A stretch of DNA of 64,000 nt from contig JAOAIX010000010.1 of assembly GCA_026414485.1 (NCBI GenBank), positions 4,371-68,370 on the forward strand. Direction: 5' to 3'. Position 1 is the stretch's first letter, and the number at the start of each line of letters is the position of its first letter. The notes below the pieces were generated by a model. It was not told the origin of the DNA. It was given only the letters and a program-made list of their open reading frames with translations, and made no database searches. The position numbers and the translations under genes are program-made. The stretch comes from Candidatus Bathyarchaeota archaeon. Its GTDB lineage: Archaea; Thermoproteota; Bathyarchaeia; Bathyarchaeales; Bathycorpusculaceae. Positions 17,648 to 61,959 of this stretch are shown here, piece after piece.

Positions 17648-17840
17648 GGCAATTTTATAGCACTCTGTTGCTTTTATAACTATTGAAATTAAATCCGTCA
17701 GAACTTCTCAAAGGATATTCCAAAAAATTGATTGGTTAAACAATGTAAAAAGAATTTTTAGATAAGGTGACTTTCAAACTGCTTTGACGCTTTGACAGAG
17801 GTAAACATAGAAAGATATTAAAAAACAGTTGAAAGGAATT

Positions 17841-18326: not shown

Positions 18327-18338
18327 AATCTAAGTCTC

Positions 18339-18497: not shown

Positions 18498-18502
18498 ACA
18501 TT

Positions 18503-18832: not shown

Positions 18833-18834
18833 TA

Positions 18835-34685: not shown

Positions 34686-34848
34686 CCTTTAAGTGTCTAT
34701 ACGTTTGGGCGCGTTTATAAATTTAATGTTTTAAATCGACAAAAGGTGCCTCCTTAAAACTCTAAGGTTAGGTCGAACTTGTTGTGAAGAGGAGACAAGA
34801 AAAAGTACGAAAAAAAATTAACGAAAAAAGAAAATTAAGGGTGTGTGT

Positions 34849-37830: not shown

Positions 37831-38445
37831 TTATGTCCTATTTTTACTGAACTGCTTCTGTGCGATATGCAACTCCTCTACAGTGTTTATGTTCAAAGCA
37901 ACTTCAATTTTGTCTAAGACATAAATTTCTTGTTCCAGTTCAGCATCAGTGATTCTTCGGCCATCGTTTACGTTTATTCCTGCGTAAACTAACCGCCTAT
38001 TATGCCAGTTAAATGTGTAACCAGCCCCTAACCCAAGTTTTTCGCGCAGTTCAAAAGGAACTGCAACTGCCAAAGCCGTTTTCCCACAACGTGCATACTC
38101 ATCTACAATGTCATCGATTATGGAACTGGTGATAAGAGGCAAATCAGCTGCTATAGTCAAAACGGTGTTTAACTTCAATGCTTTAACTGCAAAACCCATG
38201 TCTGAAACGTACTCTCGCCCAGGCGTTTTAATGACTTGAACTGGAAAACGGCTAAGGAAGGCAGCGGTTTTGGGGGTATGATCGGTAATCGTCACCACAA
38301 TATCTTGGATTTTAGTAGCATTCTGCAATGCTACCAAAACATGCTCGATAACAGCTTTTCCTCCAACCTGCAAAAGTGGTTTCTCCTCGTTTAACATCAT
38401 GCGCTTGCCTTTGCCGCCAGCCATAACTAACGCTGTAACTTTCAT
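37831..38445 (-). CDS. cobY: Adenosylcobinamide-phosphate guanylyltransferase, archaeal CobY type (NTP-transferase fold)
   Basis: 204 aa. LVMAGGKGKRM nucleotide-binding loop. 4-nt overlap with cobS. Confidence 0.7.
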   Translation of the reverse strand: MKVTALVMAGGKGKRMMLNEEKPLLQVGGKAVIEHVLVALQNATKIQDIVVTITDHTPKTAAFLSRFPVQVIKTPGREYVSDMGFAVKALKLNTVLTIAADLPLITSSIIDDIVDEYARCGKTALAVAVPFELREKLGLGAGYTFNWHNRRLVYAGINVNDGRRITDAELEQEIYVLDKIEVALNINTVEELHIAQKQFSKNRT

Positions 38446-39203
38446 TGAAACATCGCCAACAGAACAACAACAGCAACCATACGCACTAACTCATTAGTAG
38501 CTCCGAATACGTCCCCCGTAACGCCGCCAAAATGACGATGGGCAATTGTTACTATTACGCCACTAGCTAAAACTGAAATAGAAACTACTACTAAACCCAC
38601 AAACCAGCCTGCAAACCATAAAAGCGGCACAGCAACCAATAAAGATAAAAACAAAGCGGCAACCAACCGTAGAGTCCCATATTTACCGTGCATAACTTCC
38701 ATAAAAGGCGAATTCATTCCTTTATGAACAGATCTGCCAGCCCAGCAACTCACAACCATAGCTAATTTTGCACACAACTCGACCACAATTAAACTCTGAA
38801 TAATTACAGCAGCACCCAAGCCTGCAAACGCAAAAGCAGAAACCACATAAGTCATCAACCCCAACCCAATTGCGCCTGCGCCTGTAAACTGGTCATGCAT
38901 GACTTCAATTTTTCGTTCAGGAGTGCCGTGACACATAAGGGCGTCTCCAAAATCCAGTAAGCCATCTGTATGATGTAAACCTGACAGCAACAACAAAACG
39001 CTCAAAGTTAAAGCGCCTACCACCAACGTGGGAAGAAAAAAAGAAATGGCCCAACCGAAAACGCCTGCCAATAAACCTAACAAGGCGCCCACAAGTGGGA
39101 AGATAAACATGAAACGCGCAGAATCTACTAGGCAGTTCATGTCCATATGCACAGGCAGAATCGTCAAGAAAGCCAACAGGTTCTTAATCGCCTTCAACAT
39201 CAA
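38442..39203 (-). CDS. cobS: Adenosylcobinamide-GDP ribazoletransferase (cobalamin synthase)
   Basis: 253-aa membrane protein. AFLTILPV, HTDGLLDFGDAL, GGVTGDVFGATNE. Confidence 0.85.
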   Translation of the reverse strand: MMLKAIKNLLAFLTILPVHMDMNCLVDSARFMFIFPLVGALLGLLAGVFGWAISFFLPTLVVGALTLSVLLLLSGLHHTDGLLDFGDALMCHGTPERKIEVMHDQFTGAGAIGLGLMTYVVSAFAFAGLGAAVIIQSLIVVELCAKLAMVVSCWAGRSVHKGMNSPFMEVMHGKYGTLRLVAALFLSLLVAVPLLWFAGWFVGLVVVSISVLASGVIVTIAHRHFGGVTGDVFGATNELVRMVAVVVLLAMFQ

Positions 39204-39207: not shown

Positions 39208-40320
39208 TCACAACTTCAGACCCATTAACGTGGCGTAGTTACGTTCAACCTCAGAGAGCAATAAATCTTTAGTTAAAGCACCTTCAAACTTCGTCATCGC
39301 AGCTATAGAAGAACCACCAGCGCCAACACCCTCCTTAACTACACCTTGCTCATAAGCCTTTAAGCCATCAAACCGTGAGTTACCAAAATTCAAATTTGCA
39401 GCCAAAATAGGCACATCCGCGATCTGATCTACAATACCGCATATATCGGAAGAACAATCTTTCGCAACCCAACGTGTCGTGCCGATTGCAACGTTACATA
39501 AAACATCGGCATTCAAAGCTTTAACGACAGCCAAGACAGCAGTCATTTGAGTACCTCCAGCCATCAAAACAGGAACTTGCTCAGCAGCTCCCAAAACTAA
39601 GCCAGCAAAAGCTGCCATCATAGGATCGCCAACGCAAGAGACAGCTTTAATTGGGTCACTCGCAAAACTTCCAAAAACAGCGCCGGCTGCAGTCAAACCA
39701 GCTTGTACTGCTTTAATTTTTAAATCATGAGGGTTAATAGGCATGCTACTACTAACTTTGCCTTCTGCTTTTACACCCATAGCAGAAAGAACACCTAGAG
39801 CTGTCGTGGTTCCACCTGGAATACTCTCTCCAATAACTAAATAATCAGAGGTTTTCGCCAAATGTGCCCCTGCAACTTTAGCTCTCTCGATGACTTCCTT
39901 CACATTATCAACGGCGTTGCCTGTTCGAATATCCCGACCTGGGCTTCCGCCAAAATCTAAAAACGGTGCATGAGGCTTTACCCTCAAGCCGCCGCTTGCT
40001 ACCAAAACAGGAAAATCGGCTAAACGCAAAGCCGACATCGAAATCAACGCAGGCGTAGGAATGCCATCAGGGGTTACAGGAACACCATTGAAGCATTTAC
40101 ATTTTCCGAACAAAAGCAGTTCTGCGTCTGCAGGTGGTGTATAATCTGTAATTTCAGGCATTTTACCTGCTGCGGATATACCGGCAATTTTGCCAGTTTC
40201 TGATGTGGCTATCGTCAAAACGAATATGGGTGTTTTGCCGCTAATTTGCTCTAAGAAGGCTTCGCCTTTAGACGGATTTCGAATAGTCAATACATCAAAG
40301 ATTTTGGTCATTTTATGCAC
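39208..40320 (-). CDS. cobT: Archaeal-type nicotinate-nucleotide--dimethylbenzimidazole phosphoribosyltransferase (CobT, MJ1598/UPF0284 family)
   Basis: 370 aa. FVLTIATSETGKIAGISAAGK...YTPPADAELL matches my recollection of the archaeal CobT family. Lies in the cobS/cobY operon. Confidence 0.7.
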   Translation of the reverse strand: MHKMTKIFDVLTIRNPSKGEAFLEQISGKTPIFVLTIATSETGKIAGISAAGKMPEITDYTPPADAELLLFGKCKCFNGVPVTPDGIPTPALISMSALRLADFPVLVASGGLRVKPHAPFLDFGGSPGRDIRTGNAVDNVKEVIERAKVAGAHLAKTSDYLVIGESIPGGTTTALGVLSAMGVKAEGKVSSSMPINPHDLKIKAVQAGLTAAGAVFGSFASDPIKAVSCVGDPMMAAFAGLVLGAAEQVPVLMAGGTQMTAVLAVVKALNADVLCNVAIGTTRWVAKDCSSDICGIVDQIADVPILAANLNFGNSRFDGLKAYEQGVVKEGVGAGGSSIAAMTKFEGALTKDLLLSEVERNYATLMGLKL

Positions 40321-40993
40321 CTTTAGTTTTTGGGGTAACTGTGAAATTTACAATCTCCAAATGTCCATACCCATTACTTGTTTGTCGTTTGGTTTCTGTG
40401 ATAATGAGGCGGTTCTTGAAAATAGGCCCGTCAGTTACGACGGTATGGTATTCTCCACCCTCTCCACATGGATCCACATTTTTTAGTTTAAGTATGTCCT
40501 GTAGAAAGTGCTGGTTCAGTTGCCTTCCAAGCCATGCTTCGCCAATTACACTGTTTTTGGTTCTGACAACTGTCGCTTCAAAGCCTGCATTGATGAAATC
40601 TTGTAAAATCTGTTTGGTATCACCCATCCACAATGGGCGTATAGGCTGCAAACCGACTTCCTTGCAAACGCGTTCCAACCAACGTTCCTCATGGCCAGCA
40701 ACTTCGTAAATGTCGCCTGTCAGTAAACCTTCGACGCCTTGAACTTTAAACTGATGTAGCACTGCTTTGAATTGTTGTTCATAAGTTTCAGGTTTTGTTA
40801 AAGTTTTCACAAGAGAGATTCCTAGAGCTTGCGCTTGCGCATCTAAGATTTTTACGTTCAGTCCATGAAAGTTGGTTTTTGTTTCAGTACACATAAAAGT
40901 CAACAAGCTCATAACTTGGTAGTTTTCTTTGAGTGCTTTGTACAGTGCAAAGCAACTATCTTTTCCGCCACTCCAAGAAGCAACAATTTTCAT
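40313..40993 (-). CDS. PP-loop ATP pyrophosphatase, MJ0570/Dph6 (diphthine--ammonia ligase) family
   Basis: 226 aa. N-terminal SWSGGKDSCFALYKA PP-loop motif. Embedded between btuD and cobT with an 8-nt overlap with cobT. Confidence 0.7.
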   Translation of the reverse strand: MKIVASWSGGKDSCFALYKALKENYQVMSLLTFMCTETKTNFHGLNVKILDAQAQALGISLVKTLTKPETYEQQFKAVLHQFKVQGVEGLLTGDIYEVAGHEERWLERVCKEVGLQPIRPLWMGDTKQILQDFINAGFEATVVRTKNSVIGEAWLGRQLNQHFLQDILKLKNVDPCGEGGEYHTVVTDGPIFKNRLIITETKRQTSNGYGHLEIVNFTVTPKTKGA

Positions 40994-41000: not shown

Positions 41001-42293
41001 TCAGTCCCCTTTTTTGTCTTGAATAGTTTTTTCTTCTATACTGTTAAGGAAAACTAGGAGTTCGGTAAGGCTCTTAATGGTTATGGCACCCTCATTTTTG
41101 AGTTTCAGCAAATATTTTTTTGCTTGACCCTTGCTGAAATCTCTTTCTTCTATAGGTCCATCTTCTAAAATAACAGTAGGAACACCTTTTTCTAACGCTG
41201 CTTGAGCAACTTCAAGATTACGAAGATTCCCAGCTCCAAACTGAGTTGGTGCAATAACGAGAACATTAGCTTTTTTTGCTAGCTTCAAATTGGCTTCATG
41301 AGCTTCATCAGTTATTGGAGAAAAAGGAGCTTCGTTAACTGTGGTAATGCTTAACAATTGAGCGGTTTCTTGATCTGTGTCTAGCAGGTGGAGAACCCCC
41401 GCAGTTACGGTAAAGCCTTCATCTGCAAGAAGCTTCATCACAGAACTTCCGCTACCACCACCACAGATGATATGTACTACAGTGCGTCTACTCTTCTGGT
41501 TCTGAGGCTTAGATATAGGAGTTACGTAAAGTGAACCGGTAAGCGGATGCTTTTTAACTACAGCGTCAACACGAAAAACTTTTTTGACGTTTTCGCTAGT
41601 GAGAGTTTGGCTTGCCTCGCCAACCGCTACGATTTTACCATCTTTCAACAGAATCAACGAGTCACAGTAACGAGCGGCAAGGTTGAAGTCGTGGAAGACG
41701 CCCACTATAAGCAAATTTTTGGTTTTGCATAATTGCTTGAGCAAATCCATTATTTCCAGTTGGTTACAAATATCTAGATGATTTGTTGGTTCATCAAGCA
41801 GAAGGATTTTAGGTTCTTGGGTTAAAGCACGCGCAATAATTACACGCTGCCGCTCCCCACCGCTAAGTTCAGTTATAGGGCGGTCAGCAAAATGCCAAGT
41901 ATCAGTAAGCTGCATAGATTTTTTAGCTATAGCTAAATCTTCTTTACTTTCCATCCCAAATTTTGACAAATGAGGATTACGACCCATAAGCACAACTTCG
42001 AGAGCAGTAAAATCAAAAGTCATCGGCGAATCCTGTGGAACTACTGCTAGACTTTTGGCAACTTCCAATGTTTTAAGCTTGTAGATATCAGACTCATTGA
42101 TAAAAATTGTACCTTTGATGGGTCTGAGTACACGACTTATACTTTTAATTAAGGTAGATTTTCCAGAACCATTAGGTCCAAGGATACCTAAGAATTGACC
42201 GCTTTCAACCTTGAATCTAACATTGTCTAAAATCTTTGCAGATCCATAAGAACAATCGATGCCGTCAATGTTCAAAATTACCATTATATCCAC
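41001..42293 (-). CDS. Iron-siderophore/cobalamin-type ABC transporter ATP-binding protein (BtuD/FepC-like) with ~170-aa C-terminal extra domain
   Basis: 430 aa. Walker A GPNGSGKST, LSGGERQR, LLLDEPTNHLD. Residues ~262-430 form an additional alpha/beta-looking domain (VVHIICGGGSGSSVMKLL...). Confidence 0.8.
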   Translation of the reverse strand: MDIMVILNIDGIDCSYGSAKILDNVRFKVESGQFLGILGPNGSGKSTLIKSISRVLRPIKGTIFINESDIYKLKTLEVAKSLAVVPQDSPMTFDFTALEVVLMGRNPHLSKFGMESKEDLAIAKKSMQLTDTWHFADRPITELSGGERQRVIIARALTQEPKILLLDEPTNHLDICNQLEIMDLLKQLCKTKNLLIVGVFHDFNLAARYCDSLILLKDGKIVAVGEASQTLTSENVKKVFRVDAVVKKHPLTGSLYVTPISKPQNQKSRRTVVHIICGGGSGSSVMKLLADEGFTVTAGVLHLLDTDQETAQLLSITTVNEAPFSPITDEAHEANLKLAKKANVLVIAPTQFGAGNLRNLEVAQAALEKGVPTVILEDGPIEERDFSKGQAKKYLLKLKNEGAITIKSLTELLVFLNSIEEKTIQDKKGD

Positions 42294-44678: not shown

Positions 44679-45158
44679 ATGAAGTCTGAGACACCGCCGT
44701 TGCTGAAGTTTTTAGAGAAAAAAGGTATAACTCTACAAGATCTTGTTGACACAGCTTTGGAGTTCTATGTGCCGCATCCAGGTGTCGAAACTAAAGAGAA
44801 AGCAGAAGAGTTGTTGAGGGAAGAATTTTTAGATGTACTGTCTGATGTAAACATTGCCACGTTGGAGGTTATGTGTTTCAGGGCACAGGAAGACGCGGAA
44901 GCAGGACTAATCCCAGGATTAACTGTAGAAAGATTTAAAGGGCGACCGGGCTTAGTGGCAGATGAGTTAATGGGACTTGCTATAGCCAACTACATAGCAG
45001 GAGTAAAGGGCGTCTTTGAGTTCACGCGGTTCGACCAAGCAAAACCAGGCATCCTAAAAAAGTTAGGAGCCATAACCAATGATGGCATCGGTGGACTCGT
45101 GGCGGGCGTTTCTTCAAACATGTATACACGTGCTTTTAGAAGTGTGTCCCAGAAATAA
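44679..45158 (+). CDS. PgpA-fold phosphatase, candidate alpha-ribazole-5'-phosphate phosphatase CobZ
   Basis: 159 aa. PgpA-like LVADELMGLAI and NDGIGGLVAG segments. Divergent from the corrinoid transport/assembly operon. Confidence 0.45.
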   Translation: MKSETPPLLKFLEKKGITLQDLVDTALEFYVPHPGVETKEKAEELLREEFLDVLSDVNIATLEVMCFRAQEDAEAGLIPGLTVERFKGRPGLVADELMGLAIANYIAGVKGVFEFTRFDQAKPGILKKLGAITNDGIGGLVAGVSSNMYTRAFRSVSQK

Positions 45159-48037: not shown

Positions 48038-48493
48038 GTGGCAGTTGCACTTCTGCTCTCTGCAGTTCTTTTGGGATATTACTACATCGCTGTTAGAACT
48101 CCAACGAAGGAGTATCTAACACTGTATTTGTTGAATACTCAGCGACGTGCTGAAGGGTACCCTGAATTGCTAGTTTTAGGCGAGAACAACACAATTAGCG
48201 TCTATGTCAATGTGGAGAACCACATGAACACATCTCATTTGTGTGAAGTTCAAATTAAAGTAACCAGAGATGTCAGCCCAATGTTTCCACTTAATACAAC
48301 TGCAATTCAAACATTTAGGGAAACTCTTCAAGTTGGAGCTAAATTAGAAAAGCTTACTACTGTTTCTTTGGATCAGATTGGGAATTTTTCCGTGGTTTTT
48401 GAGCTGTGGGTTCTCAACGAGTTGGGAGTCTTGGAGTTCAGCGGCGAATTTTGCGTTTTAAATGTCCGAGTTATAAATAGCACAGGCAACTAA
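48038..48493 (+). CDS. DUF1616-like membrane-anchored protein (short form)
   Basis: 151 aa. One TM helix, then EYLTLYLLN....AEGYPE.L..GENNTISVYVNVENHM, which resembles the DUF1616 extracellular part. It lacks the usual multi-TM N-terminus and may be truncated. Confidence 0.35.
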   Translation: MAVALLLSAVLLGYYYIAVRTPTKEYLTLYLLNTQRRAEGYPELLVLGENNTISVYVNVENHMNTSHLCEVQIKVTRDVSPMFPLNTTAIQTFRETLQVGAKLEKLTTVSLDQIGNFSVVFELWVLNELGVLEFSGEFCVLNVRVINSTGN

Positions 48494-49956
48494 GATTTCT
48501 GGTTTTTCTGTACATAGTTTTCTTCTGTGCTTATGCGGTGCACATTGTTGTAGGCACAGAATGGTATAATTTTCTTGTTTGGAGTCACGTAGTGAATTAC
48601 GCAACGGCGAACACGATTCACATCAAACGTGTAGGGATCCATGAATGCCATGCAACCCAGCAGGAAGATTCTTCTTCGTATTGGACCAAGGGATTGATAA
48701 GCTGGAGAGGCGAACATTTTCAGAATTGCTTTCATCAGTGTAAATATTCCAACTTCTTTAGTCACCAATAACATGTTCATTGCAAGTGTTGAAGAAATAA
48801 AAAGTGTTGCAAGCAAAGAAAATTTGCTTTGCTCATCCACGTTCTGAGCTGTTTTTAAGATTCCTCTGAAGAATTTGTCAAACCTGACAAAGTGGTTAAT
48901 TGGAATTATTTTTCCACTTCTGGACACGTACATCCAGTTGACAATTCCACAGTGAGGACTACAGGAGAAGAGAGGCCAAGGTTTTTTCATGAATTTGCGC
49001 ATTATCTTTATAGGAGAAGTCATCACGGAAAGAGGAAAGAAATCGGTAGCCTTTATTTCACCGTTTAATTGGCTTTCTACCTCTTCAGCGAAACGCCAAT
49101 CACGCCACGCCTCTTTGAAGGGGTTGTCAGTAGCCCTGCCTGTAAAAGCTATAGGCTGAAAAATTAATCCTCGAATTATATCTGAGTTTTTGGCGGCGAA
49201 TTTTATGATTTTCCCAACTTCTTGGTCGTTGAAACCTCGCATAAGTGTGGTGACAAGAATTATTTCCATGTCAAGTTGGCGGCAGACATCTATCGCTTGA
49301 TACTTGTATTTGAGAAGTTTTTTGCCACGTATTTTCTCATAGAAACTGTCATCAAAGCTGTCAAATTGAAGGTAAACTATGTTCAGACCACTCTGTTTGA
49401 GTTTAGCTGCCAAATTGGGATCTTGGGCTATGTGAATACCGTTAGTTGCAAGAATCGTCATAAATTTTAGTTTATGCGCAGCCGCAATAATTTCAGGCAT
49501 ATCTTCGCGTTCTAGAGGTTCTCCGCCCGAGAAGAGGATGGCAGGGGGCTTAGGGTTTCGCTGACTAAGGAAAGTCAACATCTCTACTAGTTCTTCTTTG
49601 GTGGGTTCATAGTCTACCATGTGATCGGAGAAAGTTGAGAAGCAGACGGCACATTTCAGGTCGCATTTTTTGGTGACGTCTATTACGCCGATGACTGTGC
49701 TTGAGACGTGACTGTTGCAGCTTTCGCAACTGGCAGGGCAGTCTTTGGGGCTGGCAGAGAAGTCTGATTCAGGGAAATATTTGAAGAAGTCATAATTTTC
49801 AGTAAAGTTGTAGATTGGTTGACTCTGCCAATGGGTAGCCACGAAATTACCATGCTCTTTGCATTGTTTGATAAGTACAATTTTGCCTTCTTTGGTGGTT
49901 AGTTGAGCATCGATTATTTTGTTGCATTCAGGGCAGATGCTTTGAGTTTTTTTCAA
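48490..49956 (-). CDS. Radical SAM protein of the MJ0619 / tetraether lipid synthase (Tes, GDGT-MAS) family
   Basis: 488 aa. N-terminal metal knuckle SICPECNKIIDAQL...GKIVLIKQCKEHGNF, radical SAM CDLKCAVC, GGEPL, and C-terminal FMDPYTFDVNRVRRCVIHYVTPNKKIIPFCAYN. From memory these features characterise the MJ0619 family. Confidence 0.6.
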   Translation of the reverse strand: MKKTQSICPECNKIIDAQLTTKEGKIVLIKQCKEHGNFVATHWQSQPIYNFTENYDFFKYFPESDFSASPKDCPASCESCNSHVSSTVIGVIDVTKKCDLKCAVCFSTFSDHMVDYEPTKEELVEMLTFLSQRNPKPPAILFSGGEPLEREDMPEIIAAAHKLKFMTILATNGIHIAQDPNLAAKLKQSGLNIVYLQFDSFDDSFYEKIRGKKLLKYKYQAIDVCRQLDMEIILVTTLMRGFNDQEVGKIIKFAAKNSDIIRGLIFQPIAFTGRATDNPFKEAWRDWRFAEEVESQLNGEIKATDFFPLSVMTSPIKIMRKFMKKPWPLFSCSPHCGIVNWMYVSRSGKIIPINHFVRFDKFFRGILKTAQNVDEQSKFSLLATLFISSTLAMNMLLVTKEVGIFTLMKAILKMFASPAYQSLGPIRRRIFLLGCMAFMDPYTFDVNRVRRCVIHYVTPNKKIIPFCAYNNVHRISTEENYVQKNQKS

Positions 49957-50831
49957 AGCAACCCCCCAATTGTAGTGGAGAGCGCTTCAATGATAAGCGA
50001 TAAAATCAGAAGCATCATAGACATGGTGACGAGGCGCTCATATTTTCGAACGTTAGCTATAATTGGTTCCAAAGTTACAAGGCGAAATGAGGAATAGAGG
50101 AGAAGTACACTCCAGCAAAGGATTAGGGGCAAATAGAATATTGAGAAGTTACCTATCAAATAGGGTAGGGGTGCCAAGACGCCGCAAAGTGTAAAGAAAA
50201 AGGCCGCTATTTTGACGGCGGCTTTGTCTCCTACTTTTAGGGGGAGGGTTGGATAACCGACTTTGGCGTCGCCCTCACGGCTGAGGATATCCCTCACGAC
50301 ATTACCGCCGATTGTTCCAAAAGCTATGGGGTATAAACTAAGAGAAATAAGTGTGATTGTGTTGAAAATTGTGGCTTCGCCATAAAGGAAAGCTGTGCCT
50401 GTGAGAAGCCCGACGAGTATATTGGCTACGAAACCTGATTTTTTCTTCACTATAGCAGAGTAAATGATAAGCAGTATAGAATCGATGAGGAGAATTATGA
50501 AGCTTAAGGTATTTATTAAAGCTGCAAGTACCAAACCGACAACGAAGAGGGTTACTGATATTGTGATGACTTGTTTTAGGGTCAGTACTCCCGAAGGTAA
50601 AGGACGCCGGGGTTTTATTATTGAGTCGCTTTCTCTGTCAAAATAGTCGTTAATGGAGAAGCCTCCTGATGTTATGAAAGACAGAGAAAGAAAAGATAAG
50701 AGCGCGGTTTGAATGTCTACTGAGCCTTTGGTTATAGCAAGAGATGTAAGCAGAGCGAGACCACCTGTCATCATCCAGTATGGCAATCTCAAAAGTGCAA
50801 TGAGACCTTTTAGTCGATGGTTGTTACTCAT
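49953..50831 (-). CDS. UbiA-family prenyltransferase, digeranylgeranylglyceryl-phosphate synthase-like
   Basis: 292 aa, ~8 TM. First Asp-rich motif NDYFDRESDSIIKPRRPLPSG. 4-nt overlaps with both neighbours. Confidence 0.75.
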   Translation of the reverse strand: MSNNHRLKGLIALLRLPYWMMTGGLALLTSLAITKGSVDIQTALLSFLSLSFITSGGFSINDYFDRESDSIIKPRRPLPSGVLTLKQVITISVTLFVVGLVLAALINTLSFIILLIDSILLIIYSAIVKKKSGFVANILVGLLTGTAFLYGEATIFNTITLISLSLYPIAFGTIGGNVVRDILSREGDAKVGYPTLPLKVGDKAAVKIAAFFFTLCGVLAPLPYLIGNFSIFYLPLILCWSVLLLYSSFRLVTLEPIIANVRKYERLVTMSMMLLILSLIIEALSTTIGGLL

Positions 50832-51757
50832 ATCAATTTCCTCTCTTTAACAAGAGTTTTTAAATGGTCTTCAAGCCTGATTTTTGGGGTCCATTTGAGC
50901 TCTGTTTTTGCTTTAGTTATGTCAAACCAAATGGTGTGGATGTCACCTTGCCATGAAACATTTGTTGTCGTGATTTTTGTTTTGCCCGTGAGCTTGAGGA
51001 TATCTAGTATAATATGTGCAAGCTCTATGATTTTGATTGTTTTTCCAAACCCCAAGTTGTAGACCTTGCCGATTGCGGTTTCATCTGTAGCTAACAGAAG
51101 GGCATCAACTATGTCGGCGACGTGCACGAAGTCGCGAGCCTGTTGACCTGTACCTATAATTTCAAGTTTGCTTGGATCTCTTTGAAGTTTTTCTAAAAAG
51201 TCGTTTATTACACCATGACAACGTGAGCCGTAGACGTTGGCAAACCTAAGAATTGTTATATTTAAGCCGTATTGCATGGCGTAGATTTGGCTGTATTGTT
51301 CCCCAACGACTTTGCTTAGACCATAGCAGCTGAAGGGATGAAAACCATATTCCTCCTGTGTGGGAAGTTGAGTCGGGTTGCCATATACTGCAGCACTAGA
51401 GGCAAATATGAAACGTGCTTTGTCTTTTCGGGCTTTTTCAAGCACGTTGAGAGTGCCATGGGCGTTGGTTTCGAAGTCTTCAGAAGGGTTTTCCATGCTA
51501 TAGGGAACTACAACTTGGGCTGCTAGGTGATAAATTATGTCAAATTGTGGCAGGTTAAGGAGAGTTTTTGTATCGAGGATGTCGCCTTTGACGAATTGGG
51601 CTTGGGGATTATCTTCCACGTTTTCGATTTTGCCGCTGGAAAGATTGTCATATATTGTTACGTTAGCACCCGCTTCGAGGAGTTTCTTGGTGAGGTGGTA
51701 ACCTATGAACCCGGCTCCGCCTGTAACTAGAATGTTTTTTTGTTTAAGTTGTGGCAT
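50828..51757 (-). CDS. NAD-dependent epimerase/dehydratase (extended SDR, GalE-like)
   Basis: 309 aa. VTGGAGFIGYHL, YGLSK (YxxxK) catalytic motif. Confidence 0.8.
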   Translation of the reverse strand: MPQLKQKNILVTGGAGFIGYHLTKKLLEAGANVTIYDNLSSGKIENVEDNPQAQFVKGDILDTKTLLNLPQFDIIYHLAAQVVVPYSMENPSEDFETNAHGTLNVLEKARKDKARFIFASSAAVYGNPTQLPTQEEYGFHPFSCYGLSKVVGEQYSQIYAMQYGLNITILRFANVYGSRCHGVINDFLEKLQRDPSKLEIIGTGQQARDFVHVADIVDALLLATDETAIGKVYNLGFGKTIKIIELAHIILDILKLTGKTKITTTNVSWQGDIHTIWFDITKAKTELKWTPKIRLEDHLKTLVKERKLI

Positions 51758-51789
51758 GGGCTTGAACTCACGATAAAGCCTATATCTTA

Positions 51790-52653
51790 TTGGATACAGT
51801 TTTAGTGTATATGTCGAAGGCGGATGCTATAAAAACTTTTAGGGATTTATTGTCTTTCTTAACTGTGGTGCCGTTGGCAAAGACGGACGAGTTCGTTTTC
51901 ACTTCGGCGCGAAATATGTGGCTGTTCCCTTTAATGGGAGGATTTATTGGAATTTGCAGTGCTGGTTATTTTTTAGGTGCCAGGTTCATCTTGAATTTTT
52001 TGGTTGACCTGCTCAATTTTATGGTTGTTTTGCATAATGAGTTATTAATTGGAATTTTAGGTGCAGTAATGACAATGGCATTTTTATTGGTGTTCACGGG
52101 GTTTCAGCATTTTGATGGATTAGTAGATTTAGGTAATGCCCTTGGTATTAAGCAACTTGAAGATAGAAAGGAGATAGCACACAGGTGGATCGTAACGACT
52201 AAAGGTGCATTTTTAGCGATCTTTGTAGAGTTGACTGCAGTGGTCGGCTTGTTTGTACTAAGCGGAGACGTGGGCATTGCGGTGCGGGCGTTAGTAGTAG
52301 CTGAAGTGGCGGCAAAGTTAGCTATGGTGACTATTGTTTGGCGTGGCAGGGCAGCTCACGAAGGGCTAGGGTCGCGGTTTATTAGTTACGCGAAGCGGAA
52401 ACTGAATTTTGTAGCCTACGGTACTGCCGTAGTTTTGGGGTTCATCTTGATGGGTATTGCAGGTGTACTTGCAATATTGGTATCGGCATTGTTTGGGTTT
52501 TTCATGATGCATGTTGGAAATCGTGTTTTTGGTGGTGTTTCAGGCGACATTATCGGCGCAACTAATGAAGGGACAAGAGCGCTAATTTTGGTTTTCGTTG
52601 CGTTGACTTGGGGTTTTTTTGCAGGGTTGTTTTGGGGAGGGATGGGAATTTGA
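51790..52653 (+). CDS. Second CobS-family protein (adenosylcobinamide-GDP ribazoletransferase paralog)
   Basis: SFLTVVPL, HFDGLVDLGNAL, GGVSGDIIGATNE. Probable start is ATG 51811 (the track start at 51790 is TTG). Confidence 0.7.
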   Translation: MDTVLVYMSKADAIKTFRDLLSFLTVVPLAKTDEFVFTSARNMWLFPLMGGFIGICSAGYFLGARFILNFLVDLLNFMVVLHNELLIGILGAVMTMAFLLVFTGFQHFDGLVDLGNALGIKQLEDRKEIAHRWIVTTKGAFLAIFVELTAVVGLFVLSGDVGIAVRALVVAEVAAKLAMVTIVWRGRAAHEGLGSRFISYAKRKLNFVAYGTAVVLGFILMGIAGVLAILVSALFGFFMMHVGNRVFGGVSGDIIGATNEGTRALILVFVALTWGFFAGLFWGGMGI

Positions 52654-53279
52654 AGATACCAGTTTTAGTCATGGCAGGCGGTAAAGGTAAACGGATAGGG
52701 TTACCTGTGGAAAAGCCTCTGTTACCGTTTCTAGGTAAACCGCTTGTGGACTGGGTGGTTGAAGCTGCCAAGTCAGCCAGCAAAGTTTCTGAAGTTTATG
52801 TGGTTACTAGCCCAAATACACCTGAAACGGAGAAGCGGTGCTACGTTAAAGGTTGGAAAATCCTGAGAACTGACGCTAAAGGTTACCATGCAGATTTGAA
52901 ACAGGCAACTTTAGAAGCAGGGTTGTTGAGCGCAGTGTTGACGGTCCCCGCGGATTTGCCTGCTGTAACTGGGGAATTTTTGGATAAGGTTGTTGGTACG
53001 TTTGAGACTTGCGGGATGGAATTTTTGGCGGTTTTTGTACCTATAGAGAAACGTGAAAAGTTAGGATTGTCTGTTTCCAGCATAGATGAATACAAAGGCG
53101 TTTGGTATTCAGTTTCAGGGGTTAATATCGTTAATGGAGCGAAAATTCAGGGGGAAGGCAAAATTGAAACTAGCGCAATTATAACAGATGAGGTGGAAGT
53201 TTTGCTTAATATTAATACTCTGAAGGATTTAGAAATTGCAGAGAAAATAATGAAGAGCGCAAATATAATTAGACTTTGA
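52608..53279 (+). CDS. Second CobY-like NTP-transferase-fold protein (guanylyltransferase paralog)
   Basis: LVMAGGKGKRIG loop and the same overall layout as cobY at 37831..38445 (LNINT..DL.IAEK at the C-terminus). Probable start is TTG 52650, overlapping the upstream TGA (TTGA overlap), or ATG 52671. Confidence 0.6.
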   Translation: MGFFCRVVLGRDGNLKIPVLVMAGGKGKRIGLPVEKPLLPFLGKPLVDWVVEAAKSASKVSEVYVVTSPNTPETEKRCYVKGWKILRTDAKGYHADLKQATLEAGLLSAVLTVPADLPAVTGEFLDKVVGTFETCGMEFLAVFVPIEKREKLGLSVSSIDEYKGVWYSVSGVNIVNGAKIQGEGKIETSAIITDEVEVLLNINTLKDLEIAEKIMKSANIIRL

Positions 53280-53446: not shown

Positions 53447-54871
53447 ATGAGTATACTGAGTCATGATAAGTTGTGGAACACCATAATTAGTATGCCCACT
53501 ACCAAAAAGATGCTTCAGCTCTCCCTGAAGAAGTGTATCAATTGCAACCGAACGGTACTTGAAGCTGCGCTGGACAGCTATGTTGACAAAGCGGATCCAA
53601 AATGCGAAAGGTGCAGCAAAACGTACTCTAAAATAATTGGGTTCTGGATAGAATTTTTGCGGAAAAGCCTCAACATCAAAAAAGAAAAAGTTGATAAACT
53701 CCTCTCTGATCCTTACGCACGGCGGGCTGTTCTCAACATCGCCCGCTCTTTTTACTATTACGGCATAAAAAAACCGATTTGCCTCCACGCACCTTTTCTT
53801 GTAGTATGGGACTTTACCCACAAATGTAACCTCCGTTGCAAACATTGCTACAGTAAAAGTGGAGCTGTACAAGAAGAAGAGCTAAAAACTCAAGAGGCAA
53901 AAAGAGTTGTTGATCAACTGGCAGACGCTGGAGTGACAGCGCTGGCGTTTTCAGGTGGTGAACCACTCACTCGTAACGACTTTTTTGAAGTTGCAAAACA
54001 CGCCGTAAAACGTGGTCTTTACGTTTCCGTCGCTACTAACGGCACTCTTCTAACCAAAGAAATGGCTCAAAAACTCAAAGAAGCCAAAATTCATTATGTA
54101 GAAATAAGCATTGACGGGGCAACAGCCAAAACCCATGACTCCTTCCGCGGCGTAATTGGTGCTTTTGACAAAGCTGTAGAGGGCTTAAAAAACTGCGTTG
54201 AAGCTGATTTGTGTGCTTGTATTGCAACTACTGCTACCAAGAATAATCTTGAAGAATTCCCTGCAATAATCGACTTGGCAGAGGAAATTGGAGCAGAGCG
54301 CTTCACCTACTTCAATTTCATACCCACGGGAAGAGCTAAAGAACATTTCGAGCAGGACCTCTCTCCTGAAGAACGTGAAAAATTAATGCGGTATTTGCTA
54401 AACAGAATGTCAAAAGGTTGTAAAACAACTATTCTAACTACTGCTCCACAGCTGGCACGTGTAGCTCTGCAATGTCAAGGTCCTACGGGTACAGGTGAAG
54501 TCACCATGAGCATGGCACATATGCAAACGGTCAAGGTCAGCAAAAAAGCTATTCCACTCGCAGATTTTATCGGAGGATGTGGAGCAGGTAGACTCTACTG
54601 TTCACTGAACCCACAAGGCGACGTATACCCATGTGTCTTCTTCCCTTTAACAGTCGGCAACCTTAAAACACAAAACTTCCAAGACATATGGCTCAACTCC
54701 ACAATGTTCAAAGATCTACGGAACAGAAAGAAACTCAAAGGTACATGTGGAACCTGTAACTACAAATACATCTGCGGTGGATGCAGAGCACGAGCCAACG
54801 CTTACTACGGCGATTTTCTTATGTCTGACCCTGGTTGTGCCTACGGCAAGAAGCGAAAAGGAACCAAGTAA
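53447..54871 (+). CDS. Radical SAM/SPASM-domain protein (AhbC/AhbD/NirJ-like) with ~110-aa N-terminal Cys-containing extension
   Basis: 474 aa. N-terminal CINCN...CERC, radical SAM motif CNLRCKHCY, GGEPL, and SPASM region CGTCNYKYICGGCRARANAYYGDFLMSDPGCAY. Confidence 0.75.
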   Translation: MSILSHDKLWNTIISMPTTKKMLQLSLKKCINCNRTVLEAALDSYVDKADPKCERCSKTYSKIIGFWIEFLRKSLNIKKEKVDKLLSDPYARRAVLNIARSFYYYGIKKPICLHAPFLVVWDFTHKCNLRCKHCYSKSGAVQEEELKTQEAKRVVDQLADAGVTALAFSGGEPLTRNDFFEVAKHAVKRGLYVSVATNGTLLTKEMAQKLKEAKIHYVEISIDGATAKTHDSFRGVIGAFDKAVEGLKNCVEADLCACIATTATKNNLEEFPAIIDLAEEIGAERFTYFNFIPTGRAKEHFEQDLSPEEREKLMRYLLNRMSKGCKTTILTTAPQLARVALQCQGPTGTGEVTMSMAHMQTVKVSKKAIPLADFIGGCGAGRLYCSLNPQGDVYPCVFFPLTVGNLKTQNFQDIWLNSTMFKDLRNRKKLKGTCGTCNYKYICGGCRARANAYYGDFLMSDPGCAYGKKRKGTK

Positions 54872-54872: not shown

Positions 54873-55832
54873 ATGCCACCCACCAAAATCGTGAAAATTT
54901 GTCAAGCAAAACAAGATATATCAGACATCTTGAAAGAGGCAGTAAAAAATTCAGATCTAAAAGGTAAAAACCGAATCTTCATAAAACCCAACTTAAGTCA
55001 CCCTGAATATCTGCCAGGCGTTGTTACTGACCCTTACCTTACTTATTTACTCGTCAGTTTACTACGTAATAATGCCCAAGAAGTCATCGTAGGAGAATCT
55101 GACGGGTTCAACTATCCATGCCGAGTTGCCTTCCAAAAAACAGGTATGGAAGCAGCTGTAAAAAAAGCGGGCGGCACAATCATAAACCTCTCAGAAGACC
55201 AAATCATCAAAGTTAAATTTCCAGAAAGCAATACCCCCATCAAACACTTGTTTCTACCTAAAACCATACTTGATGCTGACGCTAGAATAGATTTACCCCT
55301 GATGAAAACACACGAGTTCATGCTTTATAGTGGAGCCATCAAAAACCTCTTCGGCTGCATACCCAGCAACCGAAGAATCTACCTACACCCTTATCTACCC
55401 GCCGTATTCTTCTATCTCTACCAGCTTTTCAAGCCACAGCTCACAATCATGGACGCCCGTACAGGTATTGAAGGTAACGGACCCACTAAAGGTAAACCTG
55501 TAAAGCTTAATCTCATAATTACAGGAACCGATGCCCTTGCCGTTGACATTGTCTCGACTCAGGTTATGGGTTTAAAATGGAAAGAGACCTACCTCAACTA
55601 CATAGCTAAAAAAACAAGTTTCCAAGAAGAAGACATTCAAATTCAAGGACCACAAATCTCAGAGGTTAAACGTGAATTTGAACTTCCACGTATAGACTTA
55701 CCTGTTAAAGCCCAGATGGAAATCTATAAGCACGAATATCTAACAAAGTTTTTCTTCTGCTCTCTTGATGTGGTTAAACTGTTCCAAAAGGTAACCTTAG
55801 CTTACAGAGGTAAAACAGTTCAATTTGTCTAA
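54873..55832 (+). CDS. DUF362-domain protein
   Basis: The track ORF begins at 54747, inside the upstream gene. ATG 54873 (MPPTKIVKIC...), 1 nt after the upstream stop, is the plausible start. IFIKPNL..., GESDG and LKTHE-like (MKTHEF) segments are typical of DUF362. Confidence 0.6.
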   Translation: MPPTKIVKICQAKQDISDILKEAVKNSDLKGKNRIFIKPNLSHPEYLPGVVTDPYLTYLLVSLLRNNAQEVIVGESDGFNYPCRVAFQKTGMEAAVKKAGGTIINLSEDQIIKVKFPESNTPIKHLFLPKTILDADARIDLPLMKTHEFMLYSGAIKNLFGCIPSNRRIYLHPYLPAVFFYLYQLFKPQLTIMDARTGIEGNGPTKGKPVKLNLIITGTDALAVDIVSTQVMGLKWKETYLNYIAKKTSFQEEDIQIQGPQISEVKREFELPRIDLPVKAQMEIYKHEYLTKFFFCSLDVVKLFQKVTLAYRGKTVQFV

Positions 55833-58820: not shown

Positions 58821-59363
58821 ATGCTGGAAAACAGACCAACAGAGAAAGTCATCTGGTTTTCTATGTGGTTTTTAACTTCAATCGCAACTTTCGGCATCGG
58901 GTTTTTTCCGATGTTCTATAGTCTTATAGAAAGTCGAAATAGGCATTTCCAACGTGAGGCTGCACTTGAAAAACAAATTACGACAACCCTCGAAGCTCAG
59001 GGCAAAAAAATCCCAAAAAACATGGTAGAACCACCTGACAGAAACGCCATAGCATGGACAATATTCATAGTCCTCATTGTACCTGTGTTCATACTTCTCT
59101 ATCTTTTATCCAAAGATCTACTTACACATGAAAAACATCAAGACGAATTTTTTACAGAATTGTTTCCAGAAAGAGTGTTCATGCCTCAGACAATACCGAT
59201 AAAAAAATATGTCCTCATAACGATAGTTACGTTTGGAATAGGTGGCATTTACTGGCTCTACAAAATCATAAATAACTACAATGCCCACTTCAAAGCACAA
59301 TGGAAATTAGAAAAAGAAATTTTACGCTTGATGGAGGAAAACAAACTTGGAAAATCCCTGTAA
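58821..59363 (+). CDS. Hypothetical membrane protein with internally duplicated DUF4234-like motif
   Basis: 180 aa. TFGIGFFPMFYSLIESRNRHF and TFGIGGIYWLYKIINNYNAHF repeat each other. Confidence 0.4.
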   Translation: MLENRPTEKVIWFSMWFLTSIATFGIGFFPMFYSLIESRNRHFQREAALEKQITTTLEAQGKKIPKNMVEPPDRNAIAWTIFIVLIVPVFILLYLLSKDLLTHEKHQDEFFTELFPERVFMPQTIPIKKYVLITIVTFGIGGIYWLYKIINNYNAHFKAQWKLEKEILRLMEENKLGKSL

Positions 59364-60465
59364 ACAGAAACGATTCGTAAGTCACGGGGGTGACGTGTGG
59401 GGTTTTAGTAGAAAATACAATATTCCCCTCGAAAACGTTCTGGACTTCAGTGGTCCCATTAATTTTCTTGGACCATCTCGAAAAGCTGTTGAAGCGGTAA
59501 AGGAGTACGCTAAACTTATAAGGTTTTATCCTGACCCAAACCCAGTTGCACTACGCGAGGAAATCGCCACATATGTGGGTCACGGAGTATGTACCGACAA
59601 CGTCATTTTGGGCAATGGCTCCATAGAACTAATCTACATGATTACTGAGATTTTTCCGCCGAAATTTAAAGCTGTAATTCCTGTGCCTTCATTTACTGAA
59701 TATGAAAAAGCCACATTACGCGTAGGCGGAGAAGTAAGATATGTACAATTGCCAGAAAGCTTTGACCTAATAATTGAGGACGTAAAGAAGGCAGTAACCG
59801 AAGATACCCGTATCGTCTGCATCTGTAACCCTCATAGTCCTTCAGGGCGACTCTATCAAAAAGAGGAATTATTAGAGTTGTTGGAGTTCTGCGAGAAAAG
59901 AGACATCATATTTAGCATTGATGAAAACTATATAGAATTTGCCGCAGAAGGAGAAGAAAATACACTTGCAGGCTACGTAAAGAAGTACGAAAACTTGTTT
60001 GTCATCAGATCAGTAACTAAATTCTATGGAATGCCTGGCATACGTTTTGGCTATGGCATAGCAGCTGAAAATCTCATAGAGAAGCTACAAATTGTGAGAC
60101 AGCCGTGGAGTATTAACGGTTTAGCAGGATTTGCCACTTTGGCGGCTTTCAGAGACTCCGACTTTATCCAAAACGCCAAACATACAATAGCAAAGGAGAG
60201 GGCAACCTTTAGCAAAATGCTAAGTAACATTGAAGGATTGAAAGTTTTCCCTTCTGAAACCAACTTCTTGCTTGTGAAAATTCTGAATCCTAAATTAACC
60301 GCCACTAAACTGAAGGAAGAGCTGGCTAGTGAGGGCTTTCTTATTAGAGATTGCAGCACCTTTGTTGGCTTAGACAGTAGCTATTTTAGGTTGACAGTAC
60401 GTTCAGCGGCGGATAATGTGAGACTTGTGGAAGCTTTGAAGGAAAAAATCCGAAAACTATCATAA
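59347..60465 (+). CDS. cobD: Threonine-phosphate decarboxylase CobD-like, class I/II aminotransferase fold
   Basis: 372 aa. N-terminal HGGDVWGF......VLDFSGPINFLGP is typical of CobD rather than HisC. Followed by NPHSPSG and SVTKFYGMPGIRFGY (PLP lysine region). Confidence 0.65.
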   Translation: MENPCKQKRFVSHGGDVWGFSRKYNIPLENVLDFSGPINFLGPSRKAVEAVKEYAKLIRFYPDPNPVALREEIATYVGHGVCTDNVILGNGSIELIYMITEIFPPKFKAVIPVPSFTEYEKATLRVGGEVRYVQLPESFDLIIEDVKKAVTEDTRIVCICNPHSPSGRLYQKEELLELLEFCEKRDIIFSIDENYIEFAAEGEENTLAGYVKKYENLFVIRSVTKFYGMPGIRFGYGIAAENLIEKLQIVRQPWSINGLAGFATLAAFRDSDFIQNAKHTIAKERATFSKMLSNIEGLKVFPSETNFLLVKILNPKLTATKLKEELASEGFLIRDCSTFVGLDSSYFRLTVRSAADNVRLVEALKEKIRKLS

Positions 60466-60555: not shown

Positions 60556-61959
60556 TTGAAAATGGGAAAACAATCACAGCAGGAGAAGTACAACTTGATT
60601 TTATTGATGACTACTGCGCCGTCTGAAAATGCGCCATGGTATCTTGGCAGAAAATTTCCGCCCTTAGGTTTATCCTATGTTGCCGCGTCGTTGGAAAAGG
60701 CAGGTTTCCAAGTTCAGGTACTTGACAATTACTTGCTCAAAAAACCCATAAATGAAGTTAAACGTTTGGTTAAACAGATTAACCCTGAAATCGTTGGCAT
60801 AACTTGCAGCTCTTCCACTTACAACAAATGTGTTGAAACCGCTACCGCTATTAAAGAAGTTGCACCTGCCTGCAAGATTGTGGTAGGTGGCTGGCATCCT
60901 AGCTACGTGCCTGACAGCATGCTTCAGCACGCTCAAATCGACTATGCCATCATGGGTGAAGGTGAACGTGCAATGGTGGAACTTGCGATGTACCTTTTCA
61001 AAGGCGAGAAAAAAGTTGCACTTGACTCAATCGCAGGAGTTGCCTACAAAAGAGACGGAAAAATATTGAAAAATACACCGCAATTCATCGACAATTTGGA
61101 CGAGATACCGTTTCCTGCACGGCATCTTCTGCCCATGGAATTGTACGAGAGAAAAATGGAGTTTCTCGACGTAGAACCTGTAGACATAATGAGCATTATT
61201 CGCGGCTGCCCCTTTAACTGTGCTTTCTGTGAAACGCGGAAAATGTGGGGACCAATCTGCCGCTTCTTTAGTCCAAAACGGGTTATAGATGAAATCAAAC
61301 ATCTCAAAGACAACTATGCCTCTAAGGGCATCTATTTCATAAACGACAACTTTACTATCCGAAAAAAAGAAACATTGGAACTCTGCGAACTTATGAAGCA
61401 AGAGAAACTTGATATCCAGTGGATTTGCGATACACGCGCTGATATGGTACAGCGTGAACTTTTGGTAAAAATGCGAGAGGCAGGTTGCAAGACTATCTGG
61501 TTTGGTGTAGAGTCAGGTTCTCCACGTATCTTACAAAAAATCAATAAGAATATCAGTTTAGAGCAGACCGAATACGCGTTTAAACTCTGCCGCAAAGAAG
61601 GAATACAAATCGCCTGCAGTTTCATTTTGGGAGTTCCAGGCGAAACCATACAAGATATGGAAGCGACACTTAAATTTGCCAAGAAACTTAACCCTGACCT
61701 TTGCCAATTTAACATTTTTATTGCGTACCCCGACAGTAGCCTTTATGAGGAAATTCTGCAAAGTGGCAACTACGATAAACTAGACGATTTCTTGCTGGCT
61801 ACCAAAACAGACGAGTTTGACTTCAAAAAACTAATTGAAATTCAACGTCGCTTTCACAAGGAATTCACGAGGTCACCTAGACGAATTCTGTGGAAAACCA
61901 AACGTGATGGCCCAGTAAAGGTTCTTAAGCAAGGTTTTAAAATTTTAACTTCAAAATAG
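60556..61959 (+). CDS. B12-binding-domain radical SAM protein (class B), paralog of 29941..31350
   Basis: 467 aa. FPPLGLSYVAASL, VGITCSS, VVGGWHPS, and radical SAM motif CPFNCAFC. Probable start is ATG 60562. Confidence 0.8.
   Translation: MKMGKQSQQEKYNLILLMTTAPSENAPWYLGRKFPPLGLSYVAASLEKAGFQVQVLDNYLLKKPINEVKRLVKQINPEIVGITCSSSTYNKCVETATAIKEVAPACKIVVGGWHPSYVPDSMLQHAQIDYAIMGEGERAMVELAMYLFKGEKKVALDSIAGVAYKRDGKILKNTPQFIDNLDEIPFPARHLLPMELYERKMEFLDVEPVDIMSIIRGCPFNCAFCETRKMWGPICRFFSPKRVIDEIKHLKDNYASKGIYFINDNFTIRKKETLELCELMKQEKLDIQWICDTRADMVQRELLVKMREAGCKTIWFGVESGSPRILQKINKNISLEQTEYAFKLCRKEGIQIACSFILGVPGETIQDMEATLKFAKKLNPDLCQFNIFIAYPDSSLYEEILQSGNYDKLDDFLLATKTDEFDFKKLIEIQRRFHKEFTRSPRRILWKTKRDGPVKVLKQGFKILTSK

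Follow-up and report, generated by a model that had tools for sequence, protein, structure and literature searches.

A second CobS–CobY pair beside a tetraether-lipid operon in Bathyarchaeia: a possible corrinoid-related, non-canonical module

What might a second copy of an enzyme pair from cobamide synthesis do next to a lipid operon? This question is raised by a stretch of 64,000 nucleotides from a Candidatus Bathyarchaeota archaeon (assembly GCA_026414485.1, contig JAOAIX010000010.1, positions 4,371 to 68,370; hereafter, the window), which encodes two pairs of CobS and CobY homologs. CobS performs the one membrane-bound step of cobamide synthesis, and the reason for its membrane location is an acknowledged open question (PMC8092220). 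Both pairs had been noticed in a sequence-only reading of the window, and both were borne out here by open reading frames (ORFs), profile scores and motifs. We tentatively regard the second pair, cobS2-cobY2, as a corrinoid-related but non-canonical module. On this reading, the two steps by which the nucleotide loop of cobamides is closed would have been copied long ago and neofunctionalised in Bathyarchaeia only, and the copy would still be part of corrinoid metabolism. In the literature searched, neither a second CobS or CobS paralog nor the cobS or cobY genes of Bathyarchaeia were described, and the second pair appears to be new. The genes of the two pairs, together with the cobT that adjoins the first, are as follows.

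51811..52653, plus strand: cobS2, polytopic membrane CobS-family paralog with HFDGLVDLGNA and GGVSGDIIGATNE
52650..53279, plus strand: cobY2, predicted MobA-like GTP:phosphomonoester guanylyltransferase homolog, TTG start
38442..39203, minus strand: cobS1, canonical cobamide synthase (HTDGLLDFGDA), in the canonical group of the tree
37831..38445, minus strand: cobY1, with an ATGA overlap with cobS1
39208..40320, minus strand: archaeal-type CobT (TIGR00303, 390.4 vs. a cutoff of 240)

The first pair (37831..39203) had been placed in a corrinoid transport and nucleotide-loop operon, in agreement with its neighbours: cobS1 and cobY1 adjoin the gene for CobT, a gene for a Dph6-like ATP pyrophosphatase, and FecCD, Peripla_BP_2 and ABC transport genes.

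An altered CobS translationally coupled to CobY

The cobS2 ORF spans 51790..52653. Its start had previously been taken as 51790, but this is an upstream in-frame TTG and not a likely start codon; the conserved start in the family alignment is the ATG at 51811 (MSKADAIK...). The CobS2 protein exceeded the cutoffs of both CobS models, with 98.9 bits for PF02654 (cutoff 23.2) and 116.7 bits for TIGR00317 (cutoff 110), the values for CobS1 being 138.5 and 143.6 bits, respectively. It carries HFDGLVDLGNAL and GGVSGDIIGATNE, and CobY2 carries the G-rich loop VLVMAGGKGKRIG, all three being signatures already read from the second copy. The translational coupling of the two genes, likewise proposed earlier, is seen as a TTGA overlap at 52650-52653, in which the TTG start of cobY2 lies at 52650 and the TGA stop of cobS2 at 52651-52653. 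We propose that the two proteins would be made together through this 4-nt stop/start overlap.

CobY2 matched PF12804 with 64.4 bits, indicating a MobA-like NTP-transferase fold, and was similar over residues 5-203 to the structures of M. jannaschii CobY (2MZB and 3RSB; 71.8 and 69.1 bits), to which CobY1 scored 62.6 bits. It shares with archaeal CobY a full-length similarity, the MAGGKGxR loop and a similar size; it differs in being only 37% identical to CobY1 of the same genome and in scoring below both NCBIfam equivalog cutoffs (TIGR00454, 122.4 vs. 174.7; NF045495, 93.7 vs. 250). CobY1 likewise stayed under these cutoffs (124.0 and 105.8, respectively), and this test does not separate the two copies. 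CobS2 and CobS1 are more distant from each other, with 29% identity. An AlphaFold2 model of CobS2 was all-helical, with a predicted local distance difference test score of 78.5. A Foldseek search with this model gave no match at E <= 0.001, and a sequence search of the PDB with the CobS2 family profile gave 0 matches; a solved CobS structure was not found, and the structural comparison offered no clue to function.

Searching 1.84 billion representative proteins with a profile built from 20 CobS2 relatives gave matches in two tiers. Full-length matches of at least 200 bits and the top motif-bearing fragments all read H[FT]DGL[VI]D[LV]GN, whereas, among full-length matches scoring no more than 155 bits, all those with a located motif had an acidic residue at its last position, Asp in every case except P0244, which has Glu. 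In a neighbour-joining tree, 29 Asn-variants were monophyletic, and the midpoint root fell between them and 139 canonical CobS. The Asn in place of the last Asp of HxDGLxDxxD, noted beforehand for the second copy, is therefore real and invariant across the family (29/29), and CobS2 is a diverged paralog that does not cluster tightly with CobS of single-copy type.

Residues were compared between the 29 members of the Asn clade and the 138 canonical CobS that come nearest to the CobS2 profile. Positions are those of a Salmonella CobS sequence which we take to be the reference one, and whose numbering matches every residue named in PMC8092220.

D89: D in 138 of 138 canonical CobS; N in 29 of 29 Asn-variants
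M104: M in 116 of 138 canonical CobS; A in 29 of 29 Asn-variants
D106: D in 134 of 138 canonical CobS; no conserved Asp in the Asn-variants
G110: G in 138 of 138 canonical CobS; T in 27 of 29 Asn-variants

The motif HxDxxxDxxD has been reported in all CobS homologues, the substitutions D82A, D86A and D89A each abolish the function of Salmonella CobS in vivo, and the cytoplasmic loop with this motif has been proposed to bind adenosylcobinamide-GDP (AdoCbi-GDP) (PMC8092220). CobS2 departs from this loop-2 motif, reading HFDGLVDLGN, as well as from the second loop-2 stretch (E-I/V-M-x-D ... G), which contains M104, D106 and G110. The loop-6 motif GxxGDxxG, followed by N-E ... R, is present (GGVSGDIIGATNE..R), with G228, D229 and G232 found in 27-29 of the 29 members, and the family retains H80, D82, D86, N235, E236 and R239 as well. 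Compared with CobS of Salmonella enterica and of archaea, CobS2 is thus alike in its fold family, its polytopic membrane nature, the residues just named and the coupling of its gene to a CobY gene, as in cobS1; it is unlike them in the four positions listed above, in a 17-residue insertion between helices and in forming a clade of its own.

By sequence, then, CobS2 is a distinct, monophyletic paralog family, found only in Bathyarchaeia-type records, which retains the apparent catalytic core with a donor loop that looks rebuilt, and which scores as a CobS member yet fails a defining feature of that family. Since D89N, M104A, the loss of D106 and G110T all fall in the donor loop, CobS2 probably does not merely repeat the CobS1 reaction.

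A cobamide with a different lower ligand had been offered as one role for the second pair. As stated, this proposal is weak, the changes lying in the loop implicated in donor, and not acceptor, binding (PMC8092220). A different lower ligand was also set aside as a sufficient explanation, as the canonical CobS of the 138-member set keep the residues lost in CobS2.

Conservation of the locus in three clades

The second pair had been described as lying head-to-head, at about 50 nt, with an epimerase-UbiA-Tes-like operon. The measured distance is 53 nt, and the features concerned are the following (BRE, B recognition element; SDR, short-chain dehydrogenase/reductase; DGGGP, digeranylgeranylglyceryl phosphate).

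51758..51810, no strand: 53-bp divergent spacer with the conserved core TCACGAYAAAGYCTATAT, BRE/TATA-like
50828..51757, minus strand: NAD-dependent SDR epimerase/dehydratase, Epim (PF01370, 199 bits; GalE, 183 bits, below the cutoff of 262)
49953..50831, minus strand: UbiA-family prenyltransferase, DGGGP-synthase-like (PRK12884, 180.8; PRK12882, 167.1; both below cutoff)
48490..49956, minus strand: tetraether lipid synthase Tes (NF045702, 454.8 vs. a cutoff of 450; GDGT-MAS 7TOL, 355 bits)

Epim is the first gene of the divergent operon, with its minus-strand start at 51757 facing the cobS2 start at 51811. The gene previously called Tes-like can be named Tes, as it passed the curated cutoff and is similar to GDGT-MAS. 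The UbiA protein remained below the equivalog cutoffs for DGGGP synthase (DGGGPS; 167.1 vs. 296 and 127.1 vs. 353), and its best solved relative is M. jannaschii DGGGPS (6M31, 127 bits); these scores suggest a DGGGPS-like enzyme, short of orthology. Prenyltransferases of the tetrapyrrole type (ChlG/heme O synthase) or of the DPPR-synthase type were rejected for this gene, with 49-89 bits vs. 167-181 for the DGGGPS-type models. In the Epim-UbiA-Tes operon, each gene shares 4 nt with the next, and the three genes occur together in clades 1 and 2, described below.

The clade-1 form of cobS2 was found in at least 121 GTDB species genomes, and all named CobS2 records belong to Bathyarchaeia or Bathyarchaeota or bear labels probably of the same lineage. 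One locus (L005) is titled Nanoarchaeia yet has the Bathyarchaeia cluster, and is probably mis-binned. Clade 1 includes the window sequence and spans 48-79% identity. Tes, UbiA and Epim precede cobS2 in divergent orientation in every clade-1 locus long enough, which means 75 loci in the case of Tes and UbiA and 79 in that of the Epim junction. The flanks (GT4-GT2-DUF1616 upstream, where GT denotes a glycosyltransferase family; SPASM-DUF362, GT4-GT2-GT2 and DUF6693-CobD-like downstream) are usually present and move or invert, and the Tes-UbiA-Epim/cobS2 core is unbroken despite these moving blocks. The spacer measures 46-54 bp, with the conserved core TCACGAYAAAGYCTATAT, in all 79 junction loci and in the window. 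A TATA-like element lies ~27 nt upstream of the cobS2 ATG and ~21 nt from the Epim ATG; the ~27-nt spacing would fit a leaderless archaeal cobS2 transcript, and the spacer is a predicted promoter on the basis of its conserved TATA/BRE-like core.

Clade 2 (Bathyarchaeum-type; 35-38% identity; motif HTDGLVDVGNA) has the same gene set within 20 kb, reordered as GT4>GT2>DUF1616>Epim>UbiA>Tes> <Pyr_redox <small ORF, HemN-like radical S-adenosylmethionine (SAM)>cobS2>cobY> <CobD-like <DUF6693, GT2>GT2>GT4> <DUF362 <SPASM. Here, cobS2 follows the HemN-like radical-SAM gene, Tes is on the same strand as cobS2 at a distance of 3.5 kb, and the lipid operon and cobS2 have no shared promoter; cobS2-cobY faces the CobD-like gene as its convergent neighbour. 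Clade 3 comprises 16 sediment metagenome loci with the order cobS2>cobY>canonical cobS (HHMDGLLDVGDG); its neighbours are a Dph6-like gene, Btu-type transport genes or DUF1616-GT4, the DUF1616 and GT4 genes lying directly upstream in three loci. Tes, UbiA and Epim were not found within the flanks of clade-3 cobS2 loci. Of the earlier proposals, a putative promoter shared with the lipid operon consequently stands for clade 1 (79 of 79 junction loci, 46-54 bp) and not for clades 2 and 3. Likewise, the lipid linkage itself is not unique to this genome, being present at all 79 clade-1 junctions, but it is reordered in clade 2 and absent in clade 3.

A CobY gene directly follows cobS2 in 74 of the 77 assessable clade-1 loci, being missing in L008, L010 and L014; it is adjacent in 4/4 loci of clade 2 and in all clade-3 loci whose sequence continues beyond cobS2. 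The NTGA stop/start overlap is kept in at least 58 loci, including those of clade 3 and the CobY1-type replacements described next. Among the 74 clade-1 genes, 69 are CobY2-type, one is frameshifted (L035) and four are CobY1-type (L029, L038, L055 and L071). In L035, CobY2 extends over three reading frames (10830..11440), either as a pseudogene or through a long-read frameshift error. The four loci with a CobY1-type gene belong to termite-gut Bathycorpusculum-like genomes, in which this gene follows cobS2 with an ATGA overlap (about 10843..11440; in L055, 4328..4939); in genomes of the L029 type, the canonical CobY1-CobS1-CobT-Dph6 cluster is absent from the upstream position that it has in relatives. 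Two further loci, L049 and L052, are 95% identical over 14.4 kb, and the upstream CobY1-CobS1-CobT cluster is found in L052 only, a difference that reads as a recent gain, loss or move of the canonical cluster.

CobY is the only universal partner of cobS2. Because the CobYs of clades 2 and 3 are members of the Y2 lineage, and because CobY2 is as near to M. jannaschii CobY as CobY1 is, the CobY that accompanies cobS2 seems to be the principal one of Bathyarchaeia; in clade 3, it stands between both CobS forms.

The distribution of both pairs also bears on two alternatives. The first is that of a plain isozyme, in which CobS2 and CobY2 run the CobS1/CobY1 reaction (AdoCbi-GDP + alpha-ribazole phosphate), one pair serving de novo synthesis and the transport-linked pair serving salvage. 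We consider it improbable. It would account for the passing of the curated CobS cutoffs by CobS2, for a canonical pair beside BtuFCD-type genes with cobS2 in a region with CobD-like and CobZ-like genes, and for the L029-type genomes, which still have cobS2 and a CobY without the canonical cluster in its usual place. However, CobS2 has an invariant Asn at an Asp whose Ala substitution abolishes Salmonella CobS, and it has lost three more canonical invariants; moreover, both forms coexist at 29% identity across deep Bathyarchaeia divergence, which argues against redundancy.

The second alternative is that an altered, non-catalytic CobS2 subunit serves as a partner for canonical CobS or as a membrane scaffold for CobY. 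While the loss of a conserved acidic residue, the tandem cobS2-cobY-cobS order of clade 3 and the tight translational coupling with CobY are compatible with such a partner, every other residue of the catalytic motif is invariant, and cobS2 lies apart from cobS1 in clades 1 and 2 and persists where the local canonical cluster is missing. We regard this role as very improbable.

A whole archaeal class retains a second CobS that consistently differs from the first at an essential Asp and in the putative corrinoid-binding loop, and this CobS stays tied to CobY and, in most species, to a tetraether-lipid operon. Public automated annotation names CobS2 proteins 'adenosylcobinamide-GDP ribazoletransferase'. 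Whichever reading of its function holds, a gene that may not make B12 will be included when B12 producers are surveyed in metagenomes by counting cobS.

Corrinoid and envelope substrates

The genes of the region that bear on the substrate of the pair, other than the lipid operon, are the following (PLP, pyridoxal phosphate).

59347..60465, plus strand: CobD-like PLP enzyme, threonine-phosphate decarboxylase family (TIGR01140, 285.6 vs. a cutoff of 290.55)
44679..45158, plus strand: CobZ-like alpha-ribazole phosphatase, PgpA fold (TIGR03161, 129.7 vs. a cutoff of 152.5; weak PgpA Pfam match)
32571..33872, plus strand: HemN/HutW-like radical SAM, whose ortholog (49-50% identity) lies directly upstream of cobS2 in clade 2
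53447..54871, plus strand: radical SAM/SPASM, AhbD/NirJ-like (AhbD, 319 vs. a cutoff of 500), with a ~110-aa N-terminal Cys-rich extension
54873..55832, plus strand: DUF362 protein, ATG start, always paired with the SPASM gene

The CobD-like protein scored lower for HisC (242.5 bits) than for TIGR01140 and gave 174.6 bits with S. enterica CobD (1LC5); it is a candidate supplier of an amino-alcohol phosphate. The CobZ-like gene is co-directional with the first GT4 glycosyltransferase gene and is present in 41 related loci; its predicted substrate is as ambiguous as that of CobS2, because the fold is shared with the lipid phosphatase PgpA. The SPASM and DUF362 genes follow cobY2 in the order described earlier, but SPASM is only loosely linked to cobY2, many loci having insertions. 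In L083, the SPASM gene is split in two (17526..18939), as a pseudogene or through a long-read frameshift error. In the window, an AhbD/NirJ-like SPASM gene stands beside each cobY (36526..37641 and 53447..54871, both on the plus strand; 34% identical).

Late cobamide genes and envelope genes (those for glycosyltransferases, the DGGGPS-like enzyme and Tes) are intermixed in the region, and inference from adjacency alone is therefore weakened. As cobamide genes are interleaved in the same region, the adjacency of cobS2 to the lipid genes may be regional or inherited synteny.

In the corrinoid-related reading that we tentatively favour, CobY2 would convert GTP and a phosphomonoester into a GDP-activated diester, and CobS2 would, in the membrane, transfer the phosphoryl-linked group to a hydroxyl acceptor with release of GMP, as suggested by the families to which they belong. 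The donor would differ from standard AdoCbi-GDP and would remain within corrinoid loop metabolism. In a concrete version, the lower-ligand nucleotide would first receive a GDP-activated amino-alcohol phosphate made from the CobD-like product, and attachment to the corrin ring would come afterwards. If so, the lipid operon would lie head-to-head with cobS2 because both are expressed together in a conserved cobamide-plus-envelope region, and not because they share a substrate. Pointing to a corrinoid role are the clade-3 operon with a canonical cobS, the CobY1 swap, and the CobD-like, CobZ-like, HemN-like and SPASM neighbours; to our knowledge, corrinoid chemistry is the sole known function of both families. 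With a corrinoid as substrate, the pair would mean that sediment archaea of a particularly abundant group assemble the nucleotide loop in a way not yet described.

Several observations weigh against a corrinoid substrate. The lipid operon is always adjacent in clade 1, with a conserved spacer, and within 4 kb in clade 2. In L020, a record titled as an 869-kb chromosome, GT4-GT2-DUF1616, Tes-UbiA-Epim and cobS2-cobY2 are retained as a compact unit, which lies among housekeeping genes and without other cobamide-type genes nearby. Among the genes seen in the window, none was for CbiB or for the corrin ring. Further, D89 and G110, which are invariant in the 138 canonical CobS, and M104 and D106, which are nearly so, are lost in CobS2, and on residue patterns these losses argue for a substrate outside known cobamide chemistry.

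A serious rival, albeit one that we think unlikely, is that CobY2 and CobS2 were recruited to form a phosphodiester on a membrane lipid or glycolipid. In one version, CobY2 would guanylylate DGGGP or archaetidic acid and CobS2 would move the archaetidyl group to a head-group alcohol, filling the steps of CarS and a CDP-alcohol transferase between DGGGP synthase and Tes. In another, CobY2 would activate the amino-alcohol phosphate of the CobD-like enzyme, and CobS2 would attach it to a hydroxyl group, of a sugar or of glycerol, in a glycolipid assembled by the neighbouring GT4 and GT2 enzymes. Tes acts in vitro on archaetidylglycerol, a lipid that bears a head group (PMC9433317), and activation and head-group transfer are therefore steps between DGGGPS and Tes. 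Neither CarS nor other head-group genes were found in the 64-kb window. The specific claim that CobY2 and CobS2, acting after DGGGP synthase and before Tes, form a GTP-dependent route by which ether lipids or glycolipids of archaea gain a phosphodiester-linked head group, with transfer of archaetidyl (from GDP-archaeol) or of a phospho-amino-alcohol originating from the CobD-like enzyme, seems to us quite unlikely.

An envelope substrate would be in line with the adjacency of Epim-UbiA-Tes at each of the 79 clade-1 junctions across a 46-54 bp spacer with a TATA-like core, the same gene set within 20 kb in clade 2 despite block inversions, the GT4/DUF1616 neighbours in all three clades and the compact block of L020. 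It would also be in line with the rebuilding of the putative corrinoid-binding loop in CobS2, and with CobS being an integral membrane enzyme. On the other hand, there is no lipid operon near clade-3 cobS2, where a single CobY separates cobS2 from the canonical cobS, a CobY1-type gene can stand in for CobY2, and the interleaved cobamide genes allow for inherited synteny. Moreover, CobY is a soluble enzyme, and we know of no CobS or CobY homolog that acts on lipids. CobS2 and CobY2 had no Pfam or NCBIfam match to CDP-alcohol phosphatidyltransferases or CarS, and the Foldseek search with the CobS2 model gave no PDB fold match. If a lipid or glycan is the substrate, the pair would constitute a new pathway for head groups and extend two enzyme families to a further function, with a bearing on the polar lipids of uncultured Bathyarchaeia; the head-group route, if true, would be the first non-corrinoid function of CobS and CobY, in a pathway independent of CarS and CDP-alcohol transferases.

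The chemistry proposed for the pair has mechanistic counterparts. In F420 synthesis, the MobA-like guanylyltransferase CofC makes a GDP-activated small phospho-compound, and a second enzyme, CofD, transfers it to a hydroxyl with release of GMP. CobY2 and CobS2 would follow the same two-step logic, by analogy; unlike CobS2, CofD is soluble and of an unrelated family, with no sequence relation between the two. Nucleotide activation followed by membrane phosphodiester formation and release of a nucleoside monophosphate is also found in CarS with CDP-alcohol phosphatidyltransferases, whose steps lie between DGGGP synthase and Tes, and in systems of the TagD/TagF and LicC/LicD types. Those systems use CTP and not GTP, and the likeness to them would be mechanistic only.

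As a speculation, the corrinoid and envelope readings could be reconciled by a donor that is a GDP-activated amino-alcohol phosphate without a corrin ring, derived from the CobD-like product. Its acceptor might be either the lower-ligand nucleotide, in a pre-assembly of the loop with later ligation, perhaps by the Dph6-like enzyme, or a glycolipid. A small part of the probability falls outside the four readings considered here.

Further genes of the region

The Dph6-like ATP pyrophosphatase gene (40313..40993, minus strand; PF01902; TIGR03679, 154 bits, below the cutoff of 197) lies between the genes for CobT and the Btu ATPase in the window, and also adjoins the clade-3 cobS2-cobY-cobS operon (L086 and L087). 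Its product is a candidate amide-forming enzyme of corrinoid metabolism. The neighbouring Btu-type ABC ATPase (41001..42293, minus strand) has a C-terminal extension of ~170 residues without a Pfam match.

Two genes for B12-binding radical-SAM proteins flank the region (29941..31350 and 60556..61959, both on the plus strand). They are BchE/HpnJ-like, with 153-156 bits for TIGR04072 ('lipid biosynthesis B12-rSAM') and all matches below cutoff, and may encode cobamide-requiring, lipid-modifying enzymes. Finally, an RnfD-like membrane protein fused to a 2x[4Fe-4S] domain is encoded beside a family-less membrane protein at 34005..36207 (minus strand), and this pair recurs near the clade-3 cob operon (L087, 213..3200).

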